A stretch of DNA of 64,000 nt. Source: Heptranchias perlo. Taxonomy: Eukaryota. Shown here in pieces: positions 12,366-46,609 of the stretch. The stretch spans positions 26,102,001 through 26,166,000 of the forward strand of contig NC_090341.1 in NCBI RefSeq assembly GCF_035084215.1. Reading direction: 5' to 3'. The notes under the pieces were generated by a model, which was not told where the DNA came from, did no database searches, and saw nothing but the letters and a program-made list of their open reading frames with translations. How positions within the stretch are numbered: position 1 is the stretch's first letter; each line of letters begins with the position of its first letter. The translations under genes were made by a program, and so were the position numbers.

Positions 12366-12642
12366 TGATGTGGAGATGCCGGTGATGGACTGGGGTTGAC
12401 AATTGTAAACAATTTTACAACACCAAGTTATAGTCCAGCAATTTTATTTTAAATTCACAAGCTTTCGGAGGCTTCCCCCTTAGTCAGGTGAACGATGTGA
12501 AATGAAATCCTCGAAATGAAATCGCATTTATAATTCACAGAACAATGCTTGGTGAGTACAGACAGTTTTTTCAACTGCCCGTTGCCAAGGCAATCAGTGT
12601 GCAGACAGACAGGTGTTACCTGCCAGGTCTCACAGAATATAC
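12366..12642 (-). mobile_element. Penelope-like element pseudo-LTR/3' fragment
   Basis: Closely similar to 32861-33120 (gatgtggagatgccggtgatggactgggg...caagctttcggagg). Its hammerhead-like core is altered (CTGACTA). Confidence 0.8.
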
Positions 12643-12841
12643 TCAGATGAGTGTATGTTAAGTTCTCATTCTTTCACCCATGCATTTCCCATTTATGAAA
12701 CAGCTGTAATTCATTCATTGTTAGGGAATGCAAAGCTTCACTCTTCAATGTTACCTAATGCTGAATTTACACTATCTTGCATTGCAGCACCAGTGGGAGC
12801 TGCACTGCCCACTGTGGAATGATCAAAAGCAGAGTGCCATC

Positions 12842-14408
12842 CATGTGATATCAAGAAACAGATGAGTGCACTGGATATAGCAAGGGCTATGGGCCCCAAC
12901 AACATCCCGATTGTAGTGCTGAAGACTTGTGCTCCAGAACTAGTCGCACGTCTAGCCAAGCTGTACTAGTACAGCTGCAACACCGGCATCTACGCGACAA
13001 AGTGGAAAAATGCCCAGGTATGTCCTGTCCACAAAAAGCAGGACAAATCCAATCCGGCCAATTACAGCCCTATCAGTCTACTCTCAATCATCAGCAAAGT
13101 GATGGAAGGTGTCATCGACTGTGCTATCAAGCGGCACTTACTCATCAATAACCTGCTCACCAATGCTCAGTTTGGGTTCCACCAGGACCACTCGGCTCCA
13201 GACCTCATTACACCCTTAGTCCAAACATGGACAAAAGAGCTGAATTCCAGATGTAAGGAGAGTGACTGCCCTTGACATTAAGGCAGCATTTGACCGTGTA
13301 GCATCAAGGAGCCCTAGTAAAATTGAAGTCAATGGGAATCAAGGGGAAAACTCTCCAGTGGCTGAAATCATACCTAGCACAAAAGGAAGATGGTAGTGGC
13401 TGTTGGAAGCCAATCATCTCAGCTCTAGGACACCGCTGCAGGAGTTCCTCAGGGCAGTGTCCTAGGCCCAACCATCTTTCGCTGCTTCATCAGTGACCTT
13501 CCCTCCATCATAAGGTCAGAAGTGGGGACGTTCGCTGATGATTGCACAGTGTTCAGTCCCATTCACAACCCCTCAGATAATGAAACAGTCTGTTCCCGCA
13601 TGCAGCAAGACCTGGACAACATCCAGGCTTGGGCTGATAAGTGGCAAGTGACATTCACACCAGATAAGTGCCAGGCAATGACCATCTCCAACAAGAGAGA
13701 GTCTAATCACCTCCCGTTGACATTCAACGGCATTATCATCGCCGAATCCCCGACCATCAACGCCGTGGGGGTCACCATTGACCAGAAACTTAACTAGACC
13801 AGCCACATATAAATATTGTGGCTACAAGAGCAGGTCAGAGGCTGGGTATTCTGTGGTGAATGACTCACATCCTGACTCCCCAAAGACTTTCCACCATCTA
13901 CAAGGCACAAATCAGGAATGTGATTGAGTACGCTCCACTTGTCTGGATGGGTGCAGCTCCAACACCACAAGAAGCTCGACACCATCCAGGACAAAGCAGC
14001 CCGCTTAATTGGCATCCCATCCACCATTGGAGCACCGTGGCTTCAGTGTGCATTATCTACAAGATGCACTGCAGCAACGCGCCAAGGCTTCTTCGGCAGC
14101 ATCTCCCAAATCCACAACCTCTACCACCTAGAAGAACAAGGGCAGCAGACATACAGGAACACCACCACTTGCATGTTCCCCTTCAAGTCTCTCACCATCC
14201 TGTATTGGAAATATATCGCTGTTTCCTTCATCGTCACTGGGTCAAAATCCTGGAACTCCCTACCCAACAGCACTGTGGGAGTGCCTTCAACACATGGACT
14301 GCAGCGGTTCAAGAAGGCGGCACACCACCATCTTCTCAAGGGCAATTAGGGATGGGCAATAAATGCTGGCCTTGCCAGCGACGCCCACATCCTATGAATG
14401 AATAAAAA
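12842..14408 (+). mobile_element. 5'-truncated, frameshifted copy of the 36447-39762 LINE family
   Basis: Same RT motifs (FADDCTVFS) and same 3' end (GGGCAATTAGGGATGGGCAATAAATGC...CCCACATCC...AATAAAAAA). Confidence 0.92.
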
Positions 14409-14809
14409 ATAATTCAAATATATCCAGAGTGCTGCAGTCACTTTATAACCAATTTTCCAGGTACCTGTTCGGAGTCAAGTTTTTTTTTAAGCTAGTGGAC
14501 TGAAAGGTGGCCTGTTGCACCAAAGTTCTTCTGAAAGCTTGAAAGCACATGAGTTTTAAAAAAATGGGCTTACCTACTCTGCCAATAATGGGAAAACAAA
14601 AACAAAAGCAAAACTACATCTTGGAGTCTCTCAATTAATCCCACACAGCAGCTTTATATAGCCCTTCCACACCAACGTACTGAAAATACTGATAAAGCAC
14701 CAATGCTAATAAGCCTGTATTAAAACCTACCTCATGCTGAATATTCGGTTCTTTTGTACTAGAAGTTGTTCAGACATACTTCCATTACTCTATACATTAT
14801 TTGAAATAG

Positions 14810-31195: not shown

Positions 31196-31904
31196 TTGGC
31201 AATAATTTACATTTATATAGTGCCTTTCATTTGCAACAAAATGTCCCCAGATGCTTTATAGGGCAAGTATTGGACAAGAAACAGGAAGTAGGAAAGAAGT
31301 TAGAAGAGATGACTAAAGGCACAGTTTGATGAGGTGAGTTTTGAGGAGACTTTTGTAAGTAGGGAGAGAGGCAGCAGGGGTAAAGAATCCCAGAATGCAG
31401 GGGCATGACGGTGAAGCCTCTACTACAAAGATGAAGTGGAAAAGGAGGACAGAGTCAGATAATCAGGGGGTCTGAATTGGGTCACAAGATCAAATGCTAA
31501 TTATGGATGAGGAAGACCATTTGGCCAATTGCAGTTCATCCATCCAGAATGACGCTAAAGTGCCTAATTGGTACTTTAAAAATTCCAAGGTTTTCACCTC
31601 ACTACTGCATCTGAGAGTGCATTCTATGTGATCACTCTTTGAAGAAAAAAACTTCTTGATATCAGTCCTAAATGTGCCCTTTACTGGTTTGAATGTGACA
31701 CATTGTCCCACTCTCACAATTTAATTTAAAGTAATTTTCAAGATTTACCTTTCCCATACCATTTACAATCTATAAGATCACCTCTCAGACTCTTCCTTTC
31801 CAGGCCAAGAAGTCCAAGTTTCTCCACTCTTCATTACTCAGACCTCTAAGGCTGGAGATCAGCCTTGTGGCTTTTCTTTACACTGCCTTAATGTTTGATT
31901 TTTA

Positions 31905-32000
31905 TTTTATTTATTTTCGGGATGTGGAAATTGCTGGCAAGGCTGGCATTTATTGCCCATCCCTACTTGCCCTGAGAGATTGTTGGTGGGACTTATTTTT
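31905..32000 (-). mobile_element. 3'-tail fragment of the 36447-39762 LINE family or its partner SINE
   Basis: gatgtgg...gctggcaaggctggcatttattgcccatccc matches the family 3' end. Confidence 0.75.
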
Positions 32001-32857: not shown

Positions 32858-34420
32858 CATGATGTGGAGATGCCGGTGATGGACTGGGGTGGACAAATGT
32901 AAGGAATCTTACAACACCAGGTTATAGTCCAACAGTTTTATTTGAAAATCACAAGCTTTCGGAGGCTTTCTCCTTCGTCAGGTGAGTGTGGGAATCCTTG
33001 AAGGTTACCGCATATATATTCAGAGAACAATGCCTGGTGATTACAGATAATCTTTCCAACTGCCCGTTGTCAAGGCAATCAGACAGAGAGACAGTACATA
33101 CAGGGCTACTGAATATACAAACGGTCCGAACCCAAAGACAGAGAGAGAGAGAGAGAGAGAAACATCCAAAAGGAAGGGAAAGAGAGAGAATGACCAGTTG
33201 TATTAAAAACAGATAACTCTTTTTTCGCTGGTGGGGTTACGTGTAGCGTGACATGAACCCAAGATCCCGGTTGATGCCGTCCTCATGGGTGCAGAACTTG
33301 GCTATCAATTTCTGCTCGACGATTTTGCGTTGTCGTGTGTCTCGAAGGCCGCCTTGGAGAACGCTTACCCGAAGATCGGTGGCTGAATGTCCTTGACTGC
33401 TGAAGTGTTCCCCGACTGGGAGGGAACCCTCCTGTCTGGCGATTGTTGCGCGGTGTCCGTTCATCCATTGTCGCAGTGTCTGCATGGTCTCGCCAATGTA
33501 CCATGCTCCGGGGCATCCTTTCCTGCAACGTATGAGGTAGACAACGTTGGCCGAGTCACAGGAGTATGAACCATGTACCTGGTGGGTGGTGTCCTCTCGT
33601 GTGATGGTGGTATCTGTGTCGATGATCTGGCATGTCTTGCAGAGGTTGCCGTGGCAGGGTTGTGTGGTGTCGTGGACGCTGTTTTCCTGAAAGCTGGGTA
33701 ATTTGCTGCGAACGATGGTCTGTTTGAGGTTGGGTGGCTGTTTGAAGGCGAGTAGTGGAGGCGTGGGGATGGCCTTAGTGAGGCGTTCGTCGTCATCGAT
33801 GACATGTTGAAGGCTGCGGAGAACATGGCATAGTTTCTCCGCTCCAGGGAAGTACTGGACGACGAAGGGTACTCTGTTGGTTGCGTCCCGTGTTTGTCTT
33901 CTGAGGAGGTCTATGCGATTTTTCGCTGTGGCCCGTTGGAACTGTCGATCGACGAGTCGAGCGTCATATCCCGTTCTTACGAGGGCGTCTTTCAGCGTCT
34001 GTAGGTGTCCATCGCGTTCCTCCTTGTCTGAGCAGATCCTGTGTATTCGCAGGGCCTGTCCATAGGGGATGGCCTCTTTGACGTAGTTAGGGTGGAAGCT
34101 GGAAAAGTGGAGCATCGTGAGGTTGTCCTTGGGCTTGCAGTAGAGTGAGGTGCTGAGGTGCCTGTCTTTGATGGAGATCCGTGTGTCCAAGAAAGAAACC
34201 GATTCTGAGGAGTAGTCCATGGTGAGTTTGATGGTGGGATGGAACTTGTTGATGTTATCGTGTAGTCTCTTCAGTGATTTTTCGCCGTGGGTCCAAAGGA
34301 AGAAAATGTCGTCGATGTATCTGGTGTATAGCGTTGGTTGGAGGTCCTGTGCAGTGAAGAAGTCCTGCTCGAACTTGTGCATGAAAATGTTGGCGTATTG
34401 GGGTGCGAATTTGGTCCCCC
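32858..34420 (-). mobile_element. 5'-truncated Penelope-like element (RT C-terminus, GIY-YIG endonuclease, pseudo-LTR)
   Basis: Open 381-aa ORF at 33237-34382 with RYIDDIF, FLD, NVVYLIRC...WYIGET motifs. Candidate TSD ATTAGA (32852-32857 and 34421-34426). Confidence 0.93.
32952..32981 (-). ncRNA. Minimal hammerhead-ribozyme-like motif in the Penelope pseudo-LTR
   Basis: CTGACGA-A-GGAG-AAAGC-CTCC-GAAA-GCTTG: CUGANGA and GAAA cores, stem II, and palindromic AAGCTT. Confidence 0.6.
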
Positions 34421-35489
34421 ATTAGAAGTATATTGCTGATCTGTCTGGCCCTGCTAAATAGATTACTAGTGGTCATGTGTCTTTGGGGGATGTGCTGGCT
34501 TGCACATTTGCCCAAATTAGGCAAGCATGATGAAACAAGAAGGAAGTAGTTTATGTGATAATATATAAGGATGAGATTTGGTAGAGAAGTTAAGCAGCTT
34601 GAAGTACCTGGACTAGAGGTAAGACTGGAGGACTGGGTTATCCCAATGAGCTGTTTGCTTGAGACATATGGACGTATGTATTTTCTGCTTGCTGATTGTA
34701 ATTAACATCTGAAATGAAGAAAGTCGATCACTGATACCAGAGTCTGAATCTGATGATTATTTAAGATATCAAGACGATATCTTACATTGCTGTCTTCTGG
34801 ACTCCCCAAACATTGGCCTGGTAACAAAGCAATTTCATTTACTTAAATGCTAATCAAATGCTAATGTATGTTTTAGTATCCCGCTGCCAAATTTGGCATA
34901 AACTAGGCGGTGCATGCGGATCTACATCGGCCTAACCAGAGGTTTTAAAGGGACCGCAGCAGGCCGCCAAAGAATAGGGCTCTGACTGCTACTTTTATGC
35001 AGCTGAGACCCAAGGCCCAATTTGGAGCGAGCCTCAGATCAACGTCGGGCATGCATTCCAGGCGCAAAACCAATTTCTCGGTCATTCATTCTTTTGCTTT
35101 GTGCTAGAAATATGAAACTTGTATCAGGAATCCTGCAAACACAGAAAACCATGAGATATTGGAGAAGAGAAGGTTCAGCAATGATTTTATAGAAGTATTC
35201 AAGATCCTGAAGAATATAGGCAAGATAAATTTCAGTATGCTTAACATAAACACAGATTCTACAACAAGAGGCCATCGCCTCCAAATTTGAGGAGGGAAGG
35301 TAAAAAGACAAATCAGATTTAACCACTTTATGCAGTTGATTGTATCAGCACATTCAAGAGATAGTTGGTTAAGTACCTGGCAAAAAGTTTGATAGAGGGA
35401 TATTGTGGGATATAGTATTTCCTAGATACAGGGACTAGCCAGACAGACTGCAGTAGTCTTTTCTGGTCTTGTATGTTCCTTTGTTCCTC

Positions 35490-36240: not shown

Positions 36241-36511
36241 GGTTTGGGTAGGCTATTTGGTAGAACGTGTAACTGGTCAGAGTTTCTTTGGTAAGGGGGG
36301 AGATTTTGCTCTCTCCACATATCCTAATATCTTTCTCTGCTTTAAATATTTATTCATTTTTCCCTTAAAAGGTGCAATGGTGTCTGCCTCATCTACTTCA
36401 TGTGGCAAAGCATTCTATGCTCCAACAACTCTACAATATAACATGCTTTTTTTTTTTATTCGTTCACGGGATGTGGGCGTCGCTGGCAAGGCCGGCATTT
36501 ATTGCCCATCC

Positions 36512-39418
36512 CTAATTGCCCTCGAGAAGGTGGTGGTGAGCCGCCTTCTTAAACCGCTGCAGTCCGTGTGGTGACGGTTCTCCCACAGTGCTGTTAGGAA
36601 GGGAGTTCCAGGATTTTGACCCAGCGACAATGAAGGAACGGCGATATATTTCCAAGTCGGGATGGTGTGTGACTTGGAGGGGAACGTGCAGGTGGTGTTG
36701 TTCCCATGCGCCTGCTGCCCTTGTCCTTCTAGGTGGTAGAGGTCGCGGGCTTGGGAGGTGCTGTCGAAGAAGCCTTGGCGAGTTGCTGCAGTGCATCCTG
36801 TGGATGGTGCACACTGCAGCCACAGTGCGCCGGTGGTGAAGGGAGTGACTGTTTAGGGTGGTGGATGGGGTGCCAATCAAGCGGGCTGCTTTATCTTGGA
36901 TGGTGTCGAGCCTCTTGAGTGTTGTTGGAGCTGCACTCATCCAGGCAAGTGGAGAGTATTCCATCACACTCCTGACTTGTGCCTTGTAGATGGTGGAAAG
37001 GCTTTGGGGAGTCAGGAGGTGAGTCATTCGCCGCAGAATACCCAGCCTCTGACCTGCTCTCGTAGCCACAGTATTTATATGGCTGGTCCAGTTAAGTTTC
37101 TGGTCAATGGTGACCCCCAGGATGTTGATGGTGGGGGATTCGGCGATGGTAATGCCGTTGAATGTCAAGGGGAAGTGGTTAGACTCTCTGTTGTTGGAGA
37201 TGGTCATTGCCTGGCACTTATCTGGCGCGAATGTTACTTGCCACTTATGAGCCCAAGCCTGGATGTTGTCCAGGTCTTGCTGCATGCAGGCTCGGACTGC
37301 TTCATTATCTGAGGGGTTGCGAATGGAACTGAACACTGTGCAGTCATCAGCGAACATCCCCATTTCTGACCTTATGATGGAGGGAAGGTCATTGATGAAG
37401 CAGCTGAAGATGGTTGGGCCTAGGACACTGCCCTGAGGAACTCCTGCAGCAATGCCCTGGGGCTGAGATGATTGGCCTCCAACAACCACTACCATCTTCC
37501 TTTGTGCTAGGTATGACTCCAGCCACTGGAGAGTTTTCCCCCTGATTCCCATTGACTTCAATTTTACTAGGGCTCCTTGGTGCCACACTCGGTCAAATGC
37601 TGCCTTGATGTCAAGGGCAGTCACTCTCACCTCACCTCTGGAATTCAGCTCTTTTGTCCATGTTTGGACCAAGGCTGTAATGAGGTCTGGAGCCGAGTGG
37701 TCCTGGCGGAACCCAAACTGAGCATCGGTGAGCAGGTTATTGGTGAGTAAGTGCCGCTTGATAGCACTGTCGACGACACCTTCCATCACTTTGCTGATGA
37801 TTGAGAGTAGACTGATGGGGCGGTAATTGGCCGGATTGGATTTGTCCTGCTTTTTGTGGACAGGACATACCTGGGCAATTTTCCACATTGTCGGGTGGAT
37901 GCCAGTGTTGTAGCTGTACTGGAACAGCTTGGCTAGAGGCGCAGCTAGTTCTGGAGCACAAGTCTTCAGCACTACAGCTGGGATGTTGTCAGGGCCCATA
38001 GCCTTTGCTGTATCCAGTACACTCAGCCGTTTCTTGATATCACGTGGAGTGAATCGAATTGGCCGAAGACTGGCTTCCGTGATGGTGGGGATATCGGGAG
38101 GAGGCTGAGATGGATTATCCACTCGGCACTTCTGGCTGAAGATGGTTGCAAACGCTTCAGCCTTGTCTTTTGCACTCACGTGCTGGACTCCGCCATCATT
38201 GAGAATGGGGATGTTTGCAGAGCCTCCTCCTCCCGTTAGTTGTTTAATTGTCCACCACCATTCACGACTGGATGTGGCAGGACTGCAGAGCTTTGATCTG
38301 ATCCGTTGGTTGTGGAATCGCTTAGCTCTGTCTATAGCATGTTGCTTCCGCTGTTTAGCATGCATGTAGTCCTGAGTTGTAGCTTCACCAGGTTGGCACC
38401 TCATTTTTAGGTACGCCTGGTGCTGCTCCTGGCATGCTCTTCTACACTCCTCATTGAACCAGGGTTGATCCCCTGGCTTGTTGGTAATGGTAGAGTGAGG
38501 AATATGCCGGGCCATGAGGTTACAGATTGTGCTGGAATACAATTCTGCTGCTGCTGATGGCCCACGGCGCCTCATGGATGCCCAGTTTTGAGCTGCTAGA
38601 TCTGTTCTGAATCTATCCCATTTAGCACGGTGGTAGTGCCACACAACACGTTGGATGGTGTCCTCAGTGCGAAGACGGGATTTCATCTCCACGAGGACTG
38701 TGCGGTGGTCACTCCTACCAATACTGTCATGGACAGATGCATTTGCGACAGGTAGATTGGTGAGGACGAGGTCAAGTAAGTTTTTCCCTCGTGTTGGTTC
38801 GCTCACCACCTGCCGCAGGCCCAGTCTAGCAGCTATGTCCTTCAGGACTCGGCCAGCTCGGTCAGTAGTGGTGCTACCGAGCCACTCTTGGTGATGGACA
38901 TTGAAGTCCCCCACCCAGAGTACATTTTGTGCCCTTGCTACCCTCAGTGCTTCCTCCAAGTGGTGTTCAACATGGAGGAGGACTGATTCATCAGCTGAGG
39001 GAGGACGGTAGGTGGTAATCAGCAGGAGGTTTCCTTGCCCATGTTTGACCTGATGCCATGAGATTTCATGGGGTCCGGAGTCAATGTTGAGGACTCCCAG
39101 GGCCACTCCCTCCTGACTGTATATCACTGTACCGCCACCTCTGGTGGGTCTGTCCTGCCGGTGGGACAGGACATACCCAGGGATGGTGATGGAAGAGTCT
39201 GGGACGTTGGCTGAAAGATATGATTCTGTGAGTATGGCTATGTCAGGCTGTTGCTTGACTAGTCTGTGGGACAGCTCTCCCAATTTTGGCACAAGTCCCC
39301 AGATGTTAGTAAGGAGGACCTTGCAGGGTCGACTGGGCTTGGTGTTTTGCCGTTGTCGTGTCCGGTGCCGGGTGGTCCGTCCGGTTTTATTCTTATTATG
39401 ACTTTTCGTAGCGAGATT
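36512..39418 (-). CDS. LINE APE-endonuclease/reverse transcriptase, uninterrupted; no AUG before the endonuclease
   Basis: Stop-to-stop frame from 39418 (preceded by TAA). Motifs NIWGL, TESYL, GGG, YRPP, GDFN, LDLV, SDH, YRPISLL, QFGFR, DIKAAFD, GVPQGSVLGP, FADD. The ORF-track start at 39292 is a GTG inside the APE domain. Confidence 0.9.
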   Translation of the reverse strand, partial: NLATKSHNKNKTGRTTRHRTRQRQNTKPSRPCKVLLTNIWGLVPKLGELSHRLVKQQPDIAILTESYLSANVPDSSITIPGYVLSHRQDRPTRGGGTVIYSQEGVALGVLNIDSGPHEISWHQVKHGQGNLLLITTYRPPSADESVLLHVEHHLEEALRVARAQNVLWVGDFNVHHQEWLGSTTTDRAGRVLKDIAARLGLRQVVSEPTRGKNLLDLVLTNLPVANASVHDSIGRSDHRTVLVEMKSRLRTEDTIQRVVWHYHRAKWDRFRTDLAAQNWASMRRRGPSAAAELYSSTICNLMARHIPHSTITNKPGDQPWFNEECRRACQEQHQAYLKMRCQPGEATTQDYMHAKQRKQHAIDRAKRFHNQRIRSKLCSPATSSREWWWTIKQLTGGGGSANIPILNDGGVQHVSAKDKAEAFATIFSQKCRVDNPSQPPPDIPTITEASLRPIRFTPRDIKKRLSVLDTAKAMGPDNIPAVVLKTCAPELAAPLAKLFQYSYNTGIHPTMWKIAQVCPVHKKQDKSNPANYRPISLLSIISKVMEGVVDSAIKRHLLTNNLLTDAQFGFRQDHSAPDLITALVQTWTKELNSRGEVRVTALDIKAAFDRVWHQGALVKLKSMGIRGKTLQWLESYLAQRKMVVVVGGQSSQPQGIAAGVPQGSVLGPTIFSCFINDLPSIIRSEMGMFADDCTVFSSIRNPSDNEAVRACMQQDLDNIQAWAHKWQVTFAPDKCQAMTISNNRESNHFPLTFNGITIAESPTINILGVTIDQKLNWTSHINTVATRAGQRLGILRRMTHLLTPQSLSTIYKAQVRSVMEYSPLAWMSAAPTTLKRLDTIQDKAARLIGTPSTTLNSHSLHHRRTVAAVCTIHRMHCSNSPRLLRQHLPSPRPLPPRRTRAAGAWEQHHLHVPLQVTHHPDLEIYRRSFIVAGSKSWNSLPNSTVGEPSPHGLQRFKKAAHHHLLEGN

Positions 39419-39679
39419 TTACAACTGAGTGGCTTGCTAGGCCATTTCAGAGGGCAATTAAGAATCAACCACATTGCTGTGGGTCTGGAGTCACATATAG
39501 GCCAGACCGGGTAAGGGCGGCAGGCTTCCTTCCCTAAAGGACATTAGTGAACCAGATGGGTTTTTACGACAATCCGGTAGTTTCATGGCCATCATTACTG
39601 ATACTAGTATTTTAATTCCAGATTTTTTATTTTAATTAATTGAATTTAATTAATTAATTGAATTTAAATTCGCCAGCTG

Positions 39680-39762
39680 CCGTGGCGGGATTTGAACTCA
39701 TGACTCTGGATTTTAGTCCAGGCCTCTGGATTACTCGCCCAGTTACATAACCACTATGCTAC
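39680..39762 (-). promoter_or_regulatory. tRNA-derived internal Pol III promoter at the LINE 5' end
   Basis: A-box TAGCATAGTGG (39761-39751) and B-box GAGTTCAAATCCC (39699-39687). Confidence 0.75.
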
Positions 39763-41516: not shown

Positions 41517-42618
41517 GGCCTAAATTTTAACCCCATGAACAAGTGGGTTGGGGGCGGGTGGGAATGTAAAAATTGTAAAAAATTAAAACCTGACCCCAAC
41601 TCGCCTCCAACCCGCCCATTTCCGGTTTTAACGGAGGCGGGACGAGGGGTTGGCGACCAACCCGCTCTTTGGAGGCAGGTCGGTCAGTGAAAACTTTCAA
41701 GGATACAAATGACAAGCTTTTTTATTTTTAACTCCCGGGGGCCATGATTCCCGGGCCTTCTGCTTCACACCATGTGAGAGGAGGCGTAAAGGCCTGATAC
41801 AGCAGCTAAGCGCCTTTATCACACTGCTTGTGGGCCCGGAGGAGCAGGAGTGCTTCCCTAAAGCCCAACAAGCCTATCTGCAGCGACCACCCCCATGATC
41901 TCCGATCCCTCCCCTCCACGATCTCCGACCCCCCAATGACCGACCCCTGTTGATCCCCAGCCCCTCGATGATCCATGCCCCCCCCCCCCTTGATGGCCAA
42001 CTCCGATGACTCCCGACCTCCGATGACCGACCACTGATAACCCTGACCCTTCCAATGACTGACCCCCCGATGACTCCTGACCCCCCGTGACTCCTGATCC
42101 CCCAATGACACCTGACCCCCGATGACGGACCCCCAATGATGGACCCCCGATGACGGACTCCCGATGACTGAACCCCGATGACGGACCCCCGATGACTGAA
42201 CCCCGATGACCGACCTCAGATGACTGACTCCTGATGATTCCCAACCCGCGATTACTTCCGACACCTGATGACTGACCCCCGATGACCCATGACCCACCCT
42301 CGATAACCGACCCCCGATGACTCCCGACCCCTGATGATTGACTCCCCGATGACCGACCCCGATGACCCTGATGACTCCTGATCTCCGACCCCTCTGACTC
42401 CTGACCCCCAATGATCTCTGACCCTGACACCCCCCACCCCAATAATCGACCACCCCACCCATCTAAGACTTACCTGCTGGCATCCACTTCCTGGCTCTTC
42501 TCCCATCTGACTGACGGCCAGCTTGTCAATCAGGCTGTCAGGCCTGTCAACCCGTACATCCAAGTTTCCCGTCAGGAATTCCCCCGCCTCCTTCCAGCTC
42601 CAGGTTAAAATTTACCCC
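41517..42618. mobile_element. Harbinger-like non-autonomous transposon carrying an internal minisatellite
   Basis: TIRs GGCCTAAATTTTAACC and GGTTAAAATTTACCCC (14/16 match); 3-bp TSD CTG (41514-41516 and 42619-42621). The host CR1 continues across it. Confidence 0.8.
41890..42460 (+). repeat. C-rich degenerate minisatellite (CCCCGATGAC/CCGA-type units)
   Basis: Many imperfect ccccgatgac(t/c/g)ga units; these explain the G/S/V-rich spurious ORFs. Confidence 0.85.
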
Positions 42619-43983
42619 CTGGCCTCCATTTAATAGAGAGGATATAGAGGCATTGGAAAGGGTGCAAAAAAGATTCACAAGAATGATACCAGGGAAGGCT
42701 GAACAGACTGGAGCTCTTTTCTCTAGAAAAGGGAAGGCTGAGAAGTGACCTGATAGAGGTCTTTAAGATAGTGATAGACGTAGAGAAAATGTTTCCACTT
42801 GTGGGGGAGTCCAAAACTAGAGGTCAGAAATATAAAATAGTTGCTAATAAATCCAATAGGAGAAACTTCTTTACCCAAAGAGTGGTAAGAATGTGGAATG
42901 TGCTACCACAAGGAGTAGTTGAGGCAAATAGCATAGATGCATTTAAGGGGAAGCGAGATAAGCATATGAGTGAGAAAGGAATAGAAGAATATCCTGATAG
43001 GGTTTGATGAAGTAGGGAGGGAGGAAGCTCGTGTGGAGCATAAATGCCTGCATAGAGCGGTCGGGCCAAATGGCCTGTTTCTGTGCTGAAATTTCGATGT
43101 AACTCGGTGTAACTTTATCAGGTCACCCCTCAGCCTTCTCTTTTCTAGGAAAAGCATCCCTGCCTGTTCAGCCTTTCCTGATATGTTGAAATTCATTTGC
43201 TAATTATATGCCCATTCTGCAAGTTTATTAATGTCCGCTTGCATTTTGGTGCATACTTCCTTTGTATTAATGACACCCTCAAATTTGGTGTCATCCGCAA
43301 ATTTTGAAATTGTACTTCCGAGGCAGATGCAGGTGATGTTGTGGAGTTGGAAGTAAGAGGTCTTGGTGATTGGATAGGATGTAGAATTTGGAGCTCAACC
43401 CTGGGTTGAACAGAGCATCAAGGTTTCACACTGTCTGATTCAGTCTAAGTAAGTGGCTAGAGAGGATAATAAAAGTGGGAATGGTGTTTATAGCCTTCCT
43501 GATGTTCATTTGGGGGAAATTTTAACTCATCCATGCCACGATAAGACAGGGAGTCTGACAGCAAGAAGATGGTCATTGGGTCGAATAAAATGATGGCAGG
43601 ATAGAACTGGGTAACATCAGCATACACCTGACCCTGTAGATGATATCACTGAGAGGCAGCATATAGATAAGGAAGAGCAGAAGAGCCAAGAATTGATCCT
43701 AAGGGAATCTGGCAGTGATGGTGCAGAGGCAGGAAGAGATGCCATTGCTGGAGATGCACTGGCTGCATTCAGACCCGGAGGAGTGGAATCTCCTATATAA
43801 AAATATATTTGTAAAACTAGCACAAATACAACTATTACATTCAGACAGTTCTGGTTCTTGTCTTTGAAAATTAAAAAAACTAATTCTTTGAAGATTATCC
43901 ACCAGAGGGCAATATCACACCATGGGGTTTTTACTACTATCAGAACGCATTGAATTCCATCCATCGCTGTTTCACTAGTTTCA

Positions 43984-44110
43984 ATTTTTAAAATTCATTC
44001 TTGGGATACGGGCGTTGCTGGCAAAGTCGGTATTTATTGTCCGTCCCTCATTGCCCTGAGAAGGTGCTGGTGAGCCGCTTCTTGAACCGCTGCAGTTCGT
44101 GTACTGAGGG
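43984..44110 (-). mobile_element. 3'-tail fragment of the 36447-39762 LINE family
   Basis: gggcgttgctggcaaag...attgccctgagaaggtgctggtgagccgcttcttgaaccgctgcag. Confidence 0.75.
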
Positions 44111-44629
44111 TGCTCCCGCAATTTTGTATTAGATATACGCCTATATGTACCAGCATAAATCCAGTTCAAATACAAGGTGCATATATATATTTGGAATCAT
44201 TGTTGTGCTTCCTTCAGACCCTCAAGAAAGAAGACCAACTATGTGTTTCTATTGTGCTAGCTTTAATATAACAGTTGGAGCTGACACAACATGGAAATGA
44301 TCTCTGGCTAACCTAGTTACCAGTGTGATTCATTCCTCCCTCAGATAGGTGAACTTATATATATATATATATATATATTTCAGTGTTTTTTATTAGGTAA
44401 TGTGTATTGGACAATTTGATGTTTTGTCTGTTTTTATTTGTCAGTGAGACCTTCACTAAATCTGAATTTTATTGGTATTTCATTTGATAAAATAATGAAT
44501 CACCAATTTCTCACCTACCCCTCAAAAGCTGCTGCAGCTGTCTCTTCCTCGTGAGTTTGGGCGCTGTCCCTTTGGATGTTGTGCAATAGAAACCACTTCC
44601 TTTTTAGGGATAAAAGCAGCACTGCAGAC

Positions 44630-46258: not shown

Positions 46259-46609
46259 ATGCAATGATCCAAAGAAATATGCTGAATAGCTTGGCTACAA
46301 GTATTCACAGTAGCCTGAAGCCAATTAAATTGGTGTAGGACTTGTAGGCAGTATCATAAACTCTGTAATCAGGTAATGAAGGAGATTTTGTTTTGTCTCA
46401 AGAACCGCTTTGTGACAGAGGAGGTAATGGAAATCATTATACTCTAATTAGGAAATGTATTAATATTAAAATGTTATATTCATGTGTTATTCTATTCTTT
46501 AAAAAGTTATCAATCATAGAGTCCTTCATAAATCTGCAACTATTTGACAGTTTTTGCAAAAGATCCCACGGCACGATTTCGAAGACGAGCAGGGGAGTTC
46601 TCGCTGGTG
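46259..46609 (+). repeat. Local duplication, copy 1 (351 bp)
   Basis: Highly similar, same-length direct copy at 47883-48233. Confidence 0.9.

Follow-up and report, generated by a model that had tools for sequence, protein, structure and literature searches.

A 64,000-nucleotide stretch of the cartilaginous fish Heptranchias perlo (NCBI RefSeq assembly GCF_035084215.1, contig NC_090341.1, positions 26,102,001 to 26,166,000), hereafter the window, carries on its minus strand a long interspersed nuclear element (LINE), probably of the CR1 clade, that begins with a tRNA-like head. An earlier reading of the letters alone (the original prediction) held that this element starts with an A box and a B box, has no ORF1, and contains an uninterrupted frame for an apurinic/apyrimidinic endonuclease (APE) and a reverse transcriptase (RT). 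Motifs, the open reading frame (ORF), and Pfam matches confirm this description (Table 1). The element in the window consists of one stop-to-stop frame only, without an ORF1. The catalytic motifs of both enzymes are present in this open frame, as in an autonomous APE-type LINE, and a search of PDB matched only L1 and R2 proteins. The window copy is young, being 0.4% diverged from the majority state across 94 aligned family copies, and the 7 nt that open the family 5′ end (GGGTACG) are missing from it.

Table 1. Parts of the tRNA-headed LINE and its other copies in the window (UTR, untranslated region).
Feature	Position in window	Strand	Description
Whole element	39762 to 36447	minus	~3.3 kb; probable CR1-clade single-ORF APE-RT LINE
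tRNA-derived head	39676..39762	minus	Thr-like; AGT in anticodon loop; anticodon arm duplicated
A box	39751..39761	minus	TAGCATAGTGG; TRGYNNARNNG type; motif reading
B box	39688..39697	minus	GTTCAAATCC; GTTCRANNC; sole such motif within the element
Spacer	39613..39671	minus	A/T only; T runs held at 2-3, A runs up to 5-6
5′ UTR body	39419..39612	minus	Bears upstream AUGs; retained in bipartite SINE-like derivatives
Single ORF	36512..39418	minus	968 codons stop to stop; Arg-rich N-terminal leader, APE, RT
APE endonuclease domain	38696..39319	minus	TNIWG, LTES, GDFNVH, and SDHR present; Pfam PF14529, PF03372
Reverse transcriptase domain	37106..37852	minus	QGSVLGP, FADD; RVT_1 PF00078, E=5e-39
3′ UTR	36447..36511	minus	AATAAA and A11 tail
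5′-truncated older copy	12840..14412	plus	89% identical; 0 TTTT
5′-truncated copy	59510..61350	minus	96% identical; 0 TTTT
Old 3′-end fragment	43985..44120	minus	82%
Old 3′-end fragment	31899..31988	minus	82%

The head is called a tRNA neither by ARAGORN, run on the whole window, nor by Rfam, run on the 5′ end at E ≤ 1. From its letters, it appears to be a degenerate tRNA with a duplicated anticodon arm: the arm CTGGA-loop(AGT)-TCCAG is present and is followed by a second copy of itself. One family copy with a single arm (L097) can be aligned over its full length to a tRNA-Thr(TGT) gene from this genome (z = 7.3), in a comparison limited to same-genome Cys and Thr genes. Of 26 full-headed copies drawn by ORF start, 25 have an intact A box. 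Between the old and the young lineage of the family, the A box shows two differences that keep the consensus in both, and none of 11 B-box columns differs, compared with 10 of 59 columns in the spacer behind it. A 5′ tRNA-related head with both boxes is the hallmark of a tRNA-derived short interspersed nuclear element (SINE; this type is SINE2). Behind the head, we saw by eye no likeness to the 66-bp Meta domain in two bivalve MetaSINE alignments from the supplement of PMC4824008. The unit has a sharp 5′ end at the tRNA start, with GGGTACG opening 63 of 98 headed copies.

Some full-length copies (L065, L069, L080, L083, L047, and L061) have at their 5′ junction a short second copy of the head, inverted or direct, which by its arrangement would be the product of a fold-back or template jump ending reverse transcription. 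The same genome also contains large arrays of tRNA-Cys genes at ~2.35 kb spacing with tRNA-Thr genes interspersed (G000 C23, L176-L205).

A query spanning the head and its junction with the body gave 1288 candidates, of which the best 40 were scored and 39 copies besides the window copy were compared (L065 and L066 are one insertion within duplicated DNA). All 39 open with the head and continue into the body, and 37 reach the A tail within the stretch. Because this query is biased, we drew two unbiased samples, one by the head only and one by the ORF start only. Among 20 of the 27 new matches to the head, 18 are full-length LINEs, one is a derivative consisting of head, UTR, and tail, and one is a short head copy beside a long copy. 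The ORF-start sample comprised 40 of the first 49 listed places, all on one contig; the whole head is present in 26 of these and a partial head in five, the other nine are cut at scattered points, and no alternative shared 5′ end occurs among the 40. The head is thus consistently joined to the ORF, as had been predicted, and it belongs to the unit rather than being a chance neighbor. The accompanying expectation that shared target-site duplications would enclose head and ORF failed, since none was found above chance in 39 copies and overlap lengths equal those of shuffled pairs. Target-site duplications that are absent or very short are typical of CR1.

The head pattern has 2328 matches, and the first 30 places divide into 17 that run into the ORF, 10 bipartite SINE-like forms, and three that are broken. 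The bipartite forms join head, UTR, and tail in 440-540 bp; they derive from the headed LINE by deletion, and several retain the first ORF codons. Only these derivatives are short and noncoding as a SINE2 should be; the 3.3-kb element with its selected ORF is neither. Copies of the older lineage, which are 76-91% alike to the young majority, have the same join of head, UTR, and ORF. In sequencing runs from three further organisms, whose status as RNA is guessed, contigs reach each of the 30 bins and include the bipartite joint, and none of them spans the unit. Exact 24-mer matches number 50,434 for the 3′ end and 3,166 for the ORF start, and the copies are dispersed, mostly 5′-truncated, and share a common 3′ end with A tails, as is usual for a LINE. 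The fused unit has been amplified through at least two lineages and keeps shedding deletion derivatives of head, UTR, and tail that resemble SINEs. Shark and ray gene models include fragments of the element protein (73-82% identity). Pieces of the family ORF inside such predicted models (P0007, P0071, P0081, P0086, P0096, P0098, and P0101) are either exonisation or annotation artefacts. Later insertions of 170-1200 bp, alike in T-run spacing, split the young copies at L033, L054, L056, and L072; they are probably a single younger repeat inserting into this LINE family.

The ORF is under purifying selection. Synonymous (S) and nonsynonymous (N) changes stand at S55:N34 among shared variants compared with S384:N1020 among private ones (P=7e-11), and at S68:N57 between lineages. 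The N-terminal codons are also under coding constraint, since synonymous changes account for 9 of the 11 that are shared in codons 3-37. The frame nevertheless has its first AUG only at codon 245, past the endonuclease, with nine AUGs upstream. An in-frame stop lies ahead of codon 1 in 74 of 82 copies, and older copies do not retain the ACG seen at codon 4.

On the sense strand, the element contains no TTTT, exactly eight TTT, and 22 runs of AAAA or longer, which matches the counts first reported for it (none, about eight, and frequent, respectively). The TTTT-free stretch that it forms measures 3457 nt and exceeds every other on the minus strand of the window, where the next unrelated one measures 917 nt. 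Both truncated copies in the window lack TTTT and the neighboring CR1 and Penelope have several, again as stated at the outset (14 per 1374 nt in the CR1 piece; 3 per 1185 nt in the Penelope ORF). Under codon-order shuffling, the ORF has 6 runs of TTT or longer compared with 13.2 expected (P ~0.002) and 83 TT compared with 99 (0 of 500 shuffles as low), so that the predicted depletion relative to codon shuffles holds for TTT and TT. Windows with four T in five positions number 3 compared with 10.9 expected (P=0.02), and the absence of TTTT contrasts with 4.3 expected under mononucleotide shuffling (P=0.015).

This avoidance depends on context. A synonymous T is used at 6 of 61 sites where TTT would result and at 190 of 692 sites elsewhere (odds ratio 0.29, P=0.002). 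In four ORFs of the same genome (CR1, Penelope, and two Tx1-type, family labels being assigned by reading their proteins), the same test gave odds ratios of 1.5-1.9, with 2-12 TTTT each and with T content equal or lower in three of the families. It gave 0.79-2.42 in 19 related ORFs of at least 400 codons among 42 metagenome loci. Two control ORFs in that comparison fall below their TTTT expectation (P=0.013 and 0.033) yet hold 27 and 16 TTTT. The 11 control ORFs compared for TTTT counts hold 2-12 each, several at 17-21% T; the L2 controls are decayed pieces of only 330-336 codons. Phe makes up 2.1% of the element protein, less than in any of the 78 homologues examined (2.6-8.6%; the best 80 minus two exonised fragments).

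After insertion, TTTT arises freely (14 of 479 private changes to T create it, and the aligned copies, 272 kb in all, hold 13 runs). In the A/T spacer, private TTTT occurs in 2 of 66 copies and in no shared variant. TTTT is missing from the majority state of both the young and the old lineage, which are separated by 155 well-supported differences, and among 40 of 276 variants listed for other organisms, none creates TTT. A runs form freely, as 10 of 32 lineage synonymous changes to A make AAA or longer. With no internal terminator for RNA polymerase III (Pol III), the element again resembles SINE2. Taken together, and leaving the cause aside, these statistics amount to a family-specific avoidance of sense-strand T runs.

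TTTT is present inside the A tails of 17 of 115 copies and in 3 of 314 other A runs. T+ SINEs are described as having a TTTT terminator before the A tail (PMC9599045). We rejected an inherited terminator of this kind (AATAAA plus a T run before the A tail), as TTTT-bearing tails do not cluster by lineage (P=0.23-0.33) and T4+A4+ is the commonest A-T-A form of the genome. A-T-A runs in the flanks of all examined loci are mostly such T4+A4+ palindromes (98 of 167), pointing to mutational drift from a single T to a T run beside an A run.

A metagenome contig (L255) contains a headless relative, a full-length single-ORF LINE with 42% amino acid identity over the whole ORF. We found no A or B box in it, it has nine TTTT and an odds ratio of 0.89 in the context test, and an in-frame AUG stands directly ahead of its APE domain. 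In the comparison originally suggested, that with headless relatives, the T-run depletion is absent from L255, and the other LINE families do not show it either. Element positions 150-440 (UTR body and leader) align weakly with the 5′ region of L255 (P=0.0025 on dinucleotide shuffles), the UTR body alone (150-345) does so at P=0.04, and the head does not align with that region (P=0.69). Because L255 has a single ORF and a 5′ region akin to the UTR body and not to the head, the head would have been placed before a UTR that the LINE already had. Its layout with one ORF probably predates the head, and the missing ORF1 is probably an ancestral state in this CR1 subgroup and not a consequence of the head.

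In the RT, identity is 33% to the same-genome CR1, 24% to L2, and 22-23% to Tx1-type elements. A tree of RT sequences, built without curated references, groups the element with 10 database proteins (96/91), one of them labelled moth, and apart from the two-ORF CR1 of the same genome (L160); this 11-row clade lies inside an unresolved CR1/L2 radiation. Both the absence of ORF1 and the separation from L160 distinguish the element from vertebrate two-ORF CR1 (HER1 type).

Other repeats were noted alongside. A Tx1-type LINE with an intact ORF2 of 1311-1319 codons occurs as near-identical copies ~7.1-7.5 kb apart (G000 C38, C725, C1626, and C13; L140, L141), suggesting a site-specific element within a tandem gene array. 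Young Penelope copies often lie within a few kb of each other as inverted pairs, tail to tail or head to head (e.g., C13:16208439 and 16211542); the window Penelope lies at 33237-34421. The window also contains a 507-bp near-perfect palindrome (51417-51923, 98.6% self-complementary) whose repeat recurs at 12366-12642 and 32860-33145, and a local duplication of 351 bp with 96.6% identity (46259-46609 and 47883-48233). G-rich tandem repeats at 41726-42717 have no T runs on either strand and yield spurious long ORFs.

Among named elements, the nearest model is Zenon, a CR1-clade LINE of Lepidoptera that is likewise described as ~3.3 kb long, with a single APE-RT ORF, a poly(A) tail, and repeated derivatives formed from 5′ and 3′ ends by deletion (PMC6740152). 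In that account, its internally deleted derivative Persaeus has neither tRNA homology nor a Pol III promoter (PMC6740152). Membership of Zenon would call for a lepidopteran host and no tRNA head, in contrast to the headed element of a cartilaginous fish. We therefore call the element Zenon-like only tentatively, the likeness being one of description and of a single moth protein on a long branch. In the pairs Bov-tA/BovB and SINE2-1_ACar/Vingi-2_ACar, a tRNA head is joined to LINE-derived 5′ and 3′ parts as it is here, although in the cited passages the head sits on the noncoding derivative only and not on the autonomous element (PMC5786205, PMC4494074). SINEs are there held unable to encode protein, and bipartite LINE derivatives and their LINEs are assigned to RNA polymerase II (Pol II) (PMC5786205). 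Internal oligo-T served to exclude Pol III for SINEU, and the usual split between LINEs and SINEs is stated in the same literature (PMC5786205, PMC4494074, PMC10886601).

The tRNA-headed, LINE-tailed elements described from the same host group are noncoding and, by description, different. SacSINE1 (Deu, L2 tail), SINE2-1_CM (tRNA-Ala, CORE, L2-2_CM tail), and HE1/HER1 differ from it in head and body and end in L2 or HER1 tails (PMC5499810, PMC3747384). Further shark and chimaera SINEs also differ from the element as they are described (PMC1845163, PMC7245038, PMC4824008). The TRIMp3 elements Cassandra, Helenus, and Ajax resemble it in being non-SINE retrotransposons with a Pol III promoter; according to their description they are nonautonomous long terminal repeat elements of up to ~1.3 kb that encode no protein, unlike the coding LINE studied here (PMC10886601).

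In the open literature, with Repbase, Dfam, and subscription journals outside the search, we found no description of a tRNA-headed autonomous LINE. Kojima et al. reportedly noted in 2011 Ingi/Vingi LINEs, of a different clade, with SINE-like 5′ parts. The 5′ UTR of Ingi-3_AC is described as holding a Ceph/RTE-like piece and not a tRNA head (PMC5786205). The element is real and a new variety of LINE, probably of the CR1 clade.

Starting from the observed anatomy, head-body linkage, selection, and T-run avoidance, and from the absence of these traits in the headless relative, we infer the polymerase, the lack of a cap, and action in cis. A single-ORF, poly(A)-tailed CR1-clade LINE would have captured a tRNA-derived SINE head before its own 5′ UTR in an ancestor of the cartilaginous fish. 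TFIIIC and Pol III would start at the first G of the head, read 3.3 kb owing to the purge of sense-strand T runs, and stop at the first T run in the flanking DNA. Because T runs are avoided, the RNA that is copied would be this Pol III RNA; because purifying selection on the ORF implies cis preference, it would also be the RNA that is translated. Protein would be made from the uncapped RNA by AUG-independent initiation near codons 1-16, with ribosomes entering internally on the UTR body or re-initiating after short upstream ORFs. The APE-RT protein would nick the target and prime reverse transcription on the A tail, steps that are established for this class, and would leave no target duplication.

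As two selections, one for protein function and one against T runs, act on the same source lineage, the simplest account is that Pol III makes one RNA, which is translated without cap or AUG and is itself the template copied, in cis. We consider this the best reading of the sequences and a probable one. With a little more caution, we lean on balance toward regarding the family as a successful coding retrotransposon with a 3.3-kb Pol III mRNA, a SINE promoter, and neither cap nor AUG, which would be LINE and SINE at once and the parent of its own SINEs. In the L1 system, Pol III RNAs are reported to need no ORF1p (PMC2666806), an analogy that would fit but is not needed, as the relatives of the element lack ORF1 too. 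The original prediction of a coding LINE with a SINE-type promoter, purged of Pol III terminators, is borne out in the linkage of the head and in the avoidance of TTT and TT; it finds no such backing in the number of TTTT or in the test at lineage level.

Several results weigh against transcription by Pol III and uncapped translation. The absence of TTTT from the ORF is not significant under codon-order shuffling (2.2 expected, P=0.07), third-position resampling (2.2, P=0.09), or a dinucleotide Markov model (2.3, P=0.09), and TTTT is likewise missing from four related fragments of 0.5-1.1 kb. Synonymous changes to T at lineage level lean the predicted way without reaching significance: they make TTT in 1 of 56 cases compared with 23 of 343 private ones (P=0.12), and TTTT in 0 of 56 compared with 3 of 343 (P=0.63). 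The T-run statistics are several and overlap; they were chosen post hoc, one after another, and do not count as independent tests. The old UTR of the LINE may survive as the UTR body, which could have retained a Pol II promoter. This body folds no better than shuffles (z=-0.17), which led us to reject a structured internal ribosome entry site (IRES) or ribozyme there, and the 5′ end has no Rfam match to an IRES or ribozyme either. The contigs of runs whose status as RNA is guessed show no start site. In the cited passages, Pol III processivity is regarded as a limit on SINE length (PMC10886601), and Pol III RNAs are noncoding as a rule (PMC2666806).

A first alternative, which we judge unlikely, is that Pol II transcribes the element into capped RNA, the captured head or the retained UTR serving as a Pol II promoter or fixing the 5′ end. 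The poverty in U runs would then have another cause, such as the inactivation of early AATAAA signals by removal of U-rich downstream elements, or the avoidance of splice acceptors. AATAAA does occur early, at element positions 132 and 372, and the UTR body is weakly homologous to the headless, presumably Pol II-transcribed L255. The LINEs treated in the cited passages are all Pol II elements (PMC5786205, PMC10886601, PMC2666806), and the TTTT count alone would not contradict this assignment. However, the other LINEs of the same genome and the 19 related ORFs, presumably Pol II-transcribed, show no T-run avoidance, the B box is identical across lineages, and nine upstream AUGs together with the missing start AUG would block cap-dependent scanning. 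An extra 5′ G has been taken as the mark of a copied cap (PMC2912911). The base preceding GGGTACG is G in only 9 of 63 copies, against a background of 20%, and there is therefore no sign of a copied cap, in a test that lacks a positive control for cap copying by this RT.

Labor might instead be divided, with Pol III making the template and protein supplied in trans by some copies that yield capped Pol II or read-through transcripts, much as in an ordinary SINE/LINE pair in which the protein acts on all headed RNAs. This would account for the boxes and the T-run purge without uncapped translation. The bipartite derivatives (10 of the first 30 head-pattern matches) are mobilized in trans, and tens of thousands of copies, judging by the 3′ 24-mer matches, offer ample read-through. 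Selection on the ORF in the copied lineages, seen in both the shared and the between-lineage changes, requires an RNA that benefits from its own protein, and a read-through mRNA still faces the missing AUG; we therefore hold such a division to be quite improbable. It is very improbable that the head is a vestige retained through descent and that T runs became scarce by compositional accident in a single slowly evolving lineage: the copies do come from one low-divergence lineage and so do not test this independently, T makes up only 20% of the sense strand, the signal does not survive order-2 Markov controls (which fix the TTT frequency by construction), and the lineage-level test is not significant, but the synonymous avoidance is context-specific and opposite in direction to all same-genome controls, A runs are freely made in the lineages, and ORFs of the same T content hold 2-10 TTTT.

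The division between LINEs and SINEs rests on LINEs being Pol II-transcribed and coding and SINEs being Pol III-transcribed and noncoding. Even if Pol II is responsible, this is a LINE family whose autonomous members are all tRNA-headed, which we did not find in the literature searched. If the reading of a single RNA made by Pol III is true, a Pol III transcript with a 968-codon ORF under selection would constitute a natural long Pol III mRNA in a vertebrate, and a natural case of cap- and AUG-independent translation with a 0.35-kb leader. The family would also represent a compact, ORF1-free retroelement from which SINEs originate in one step, by simple deletion.

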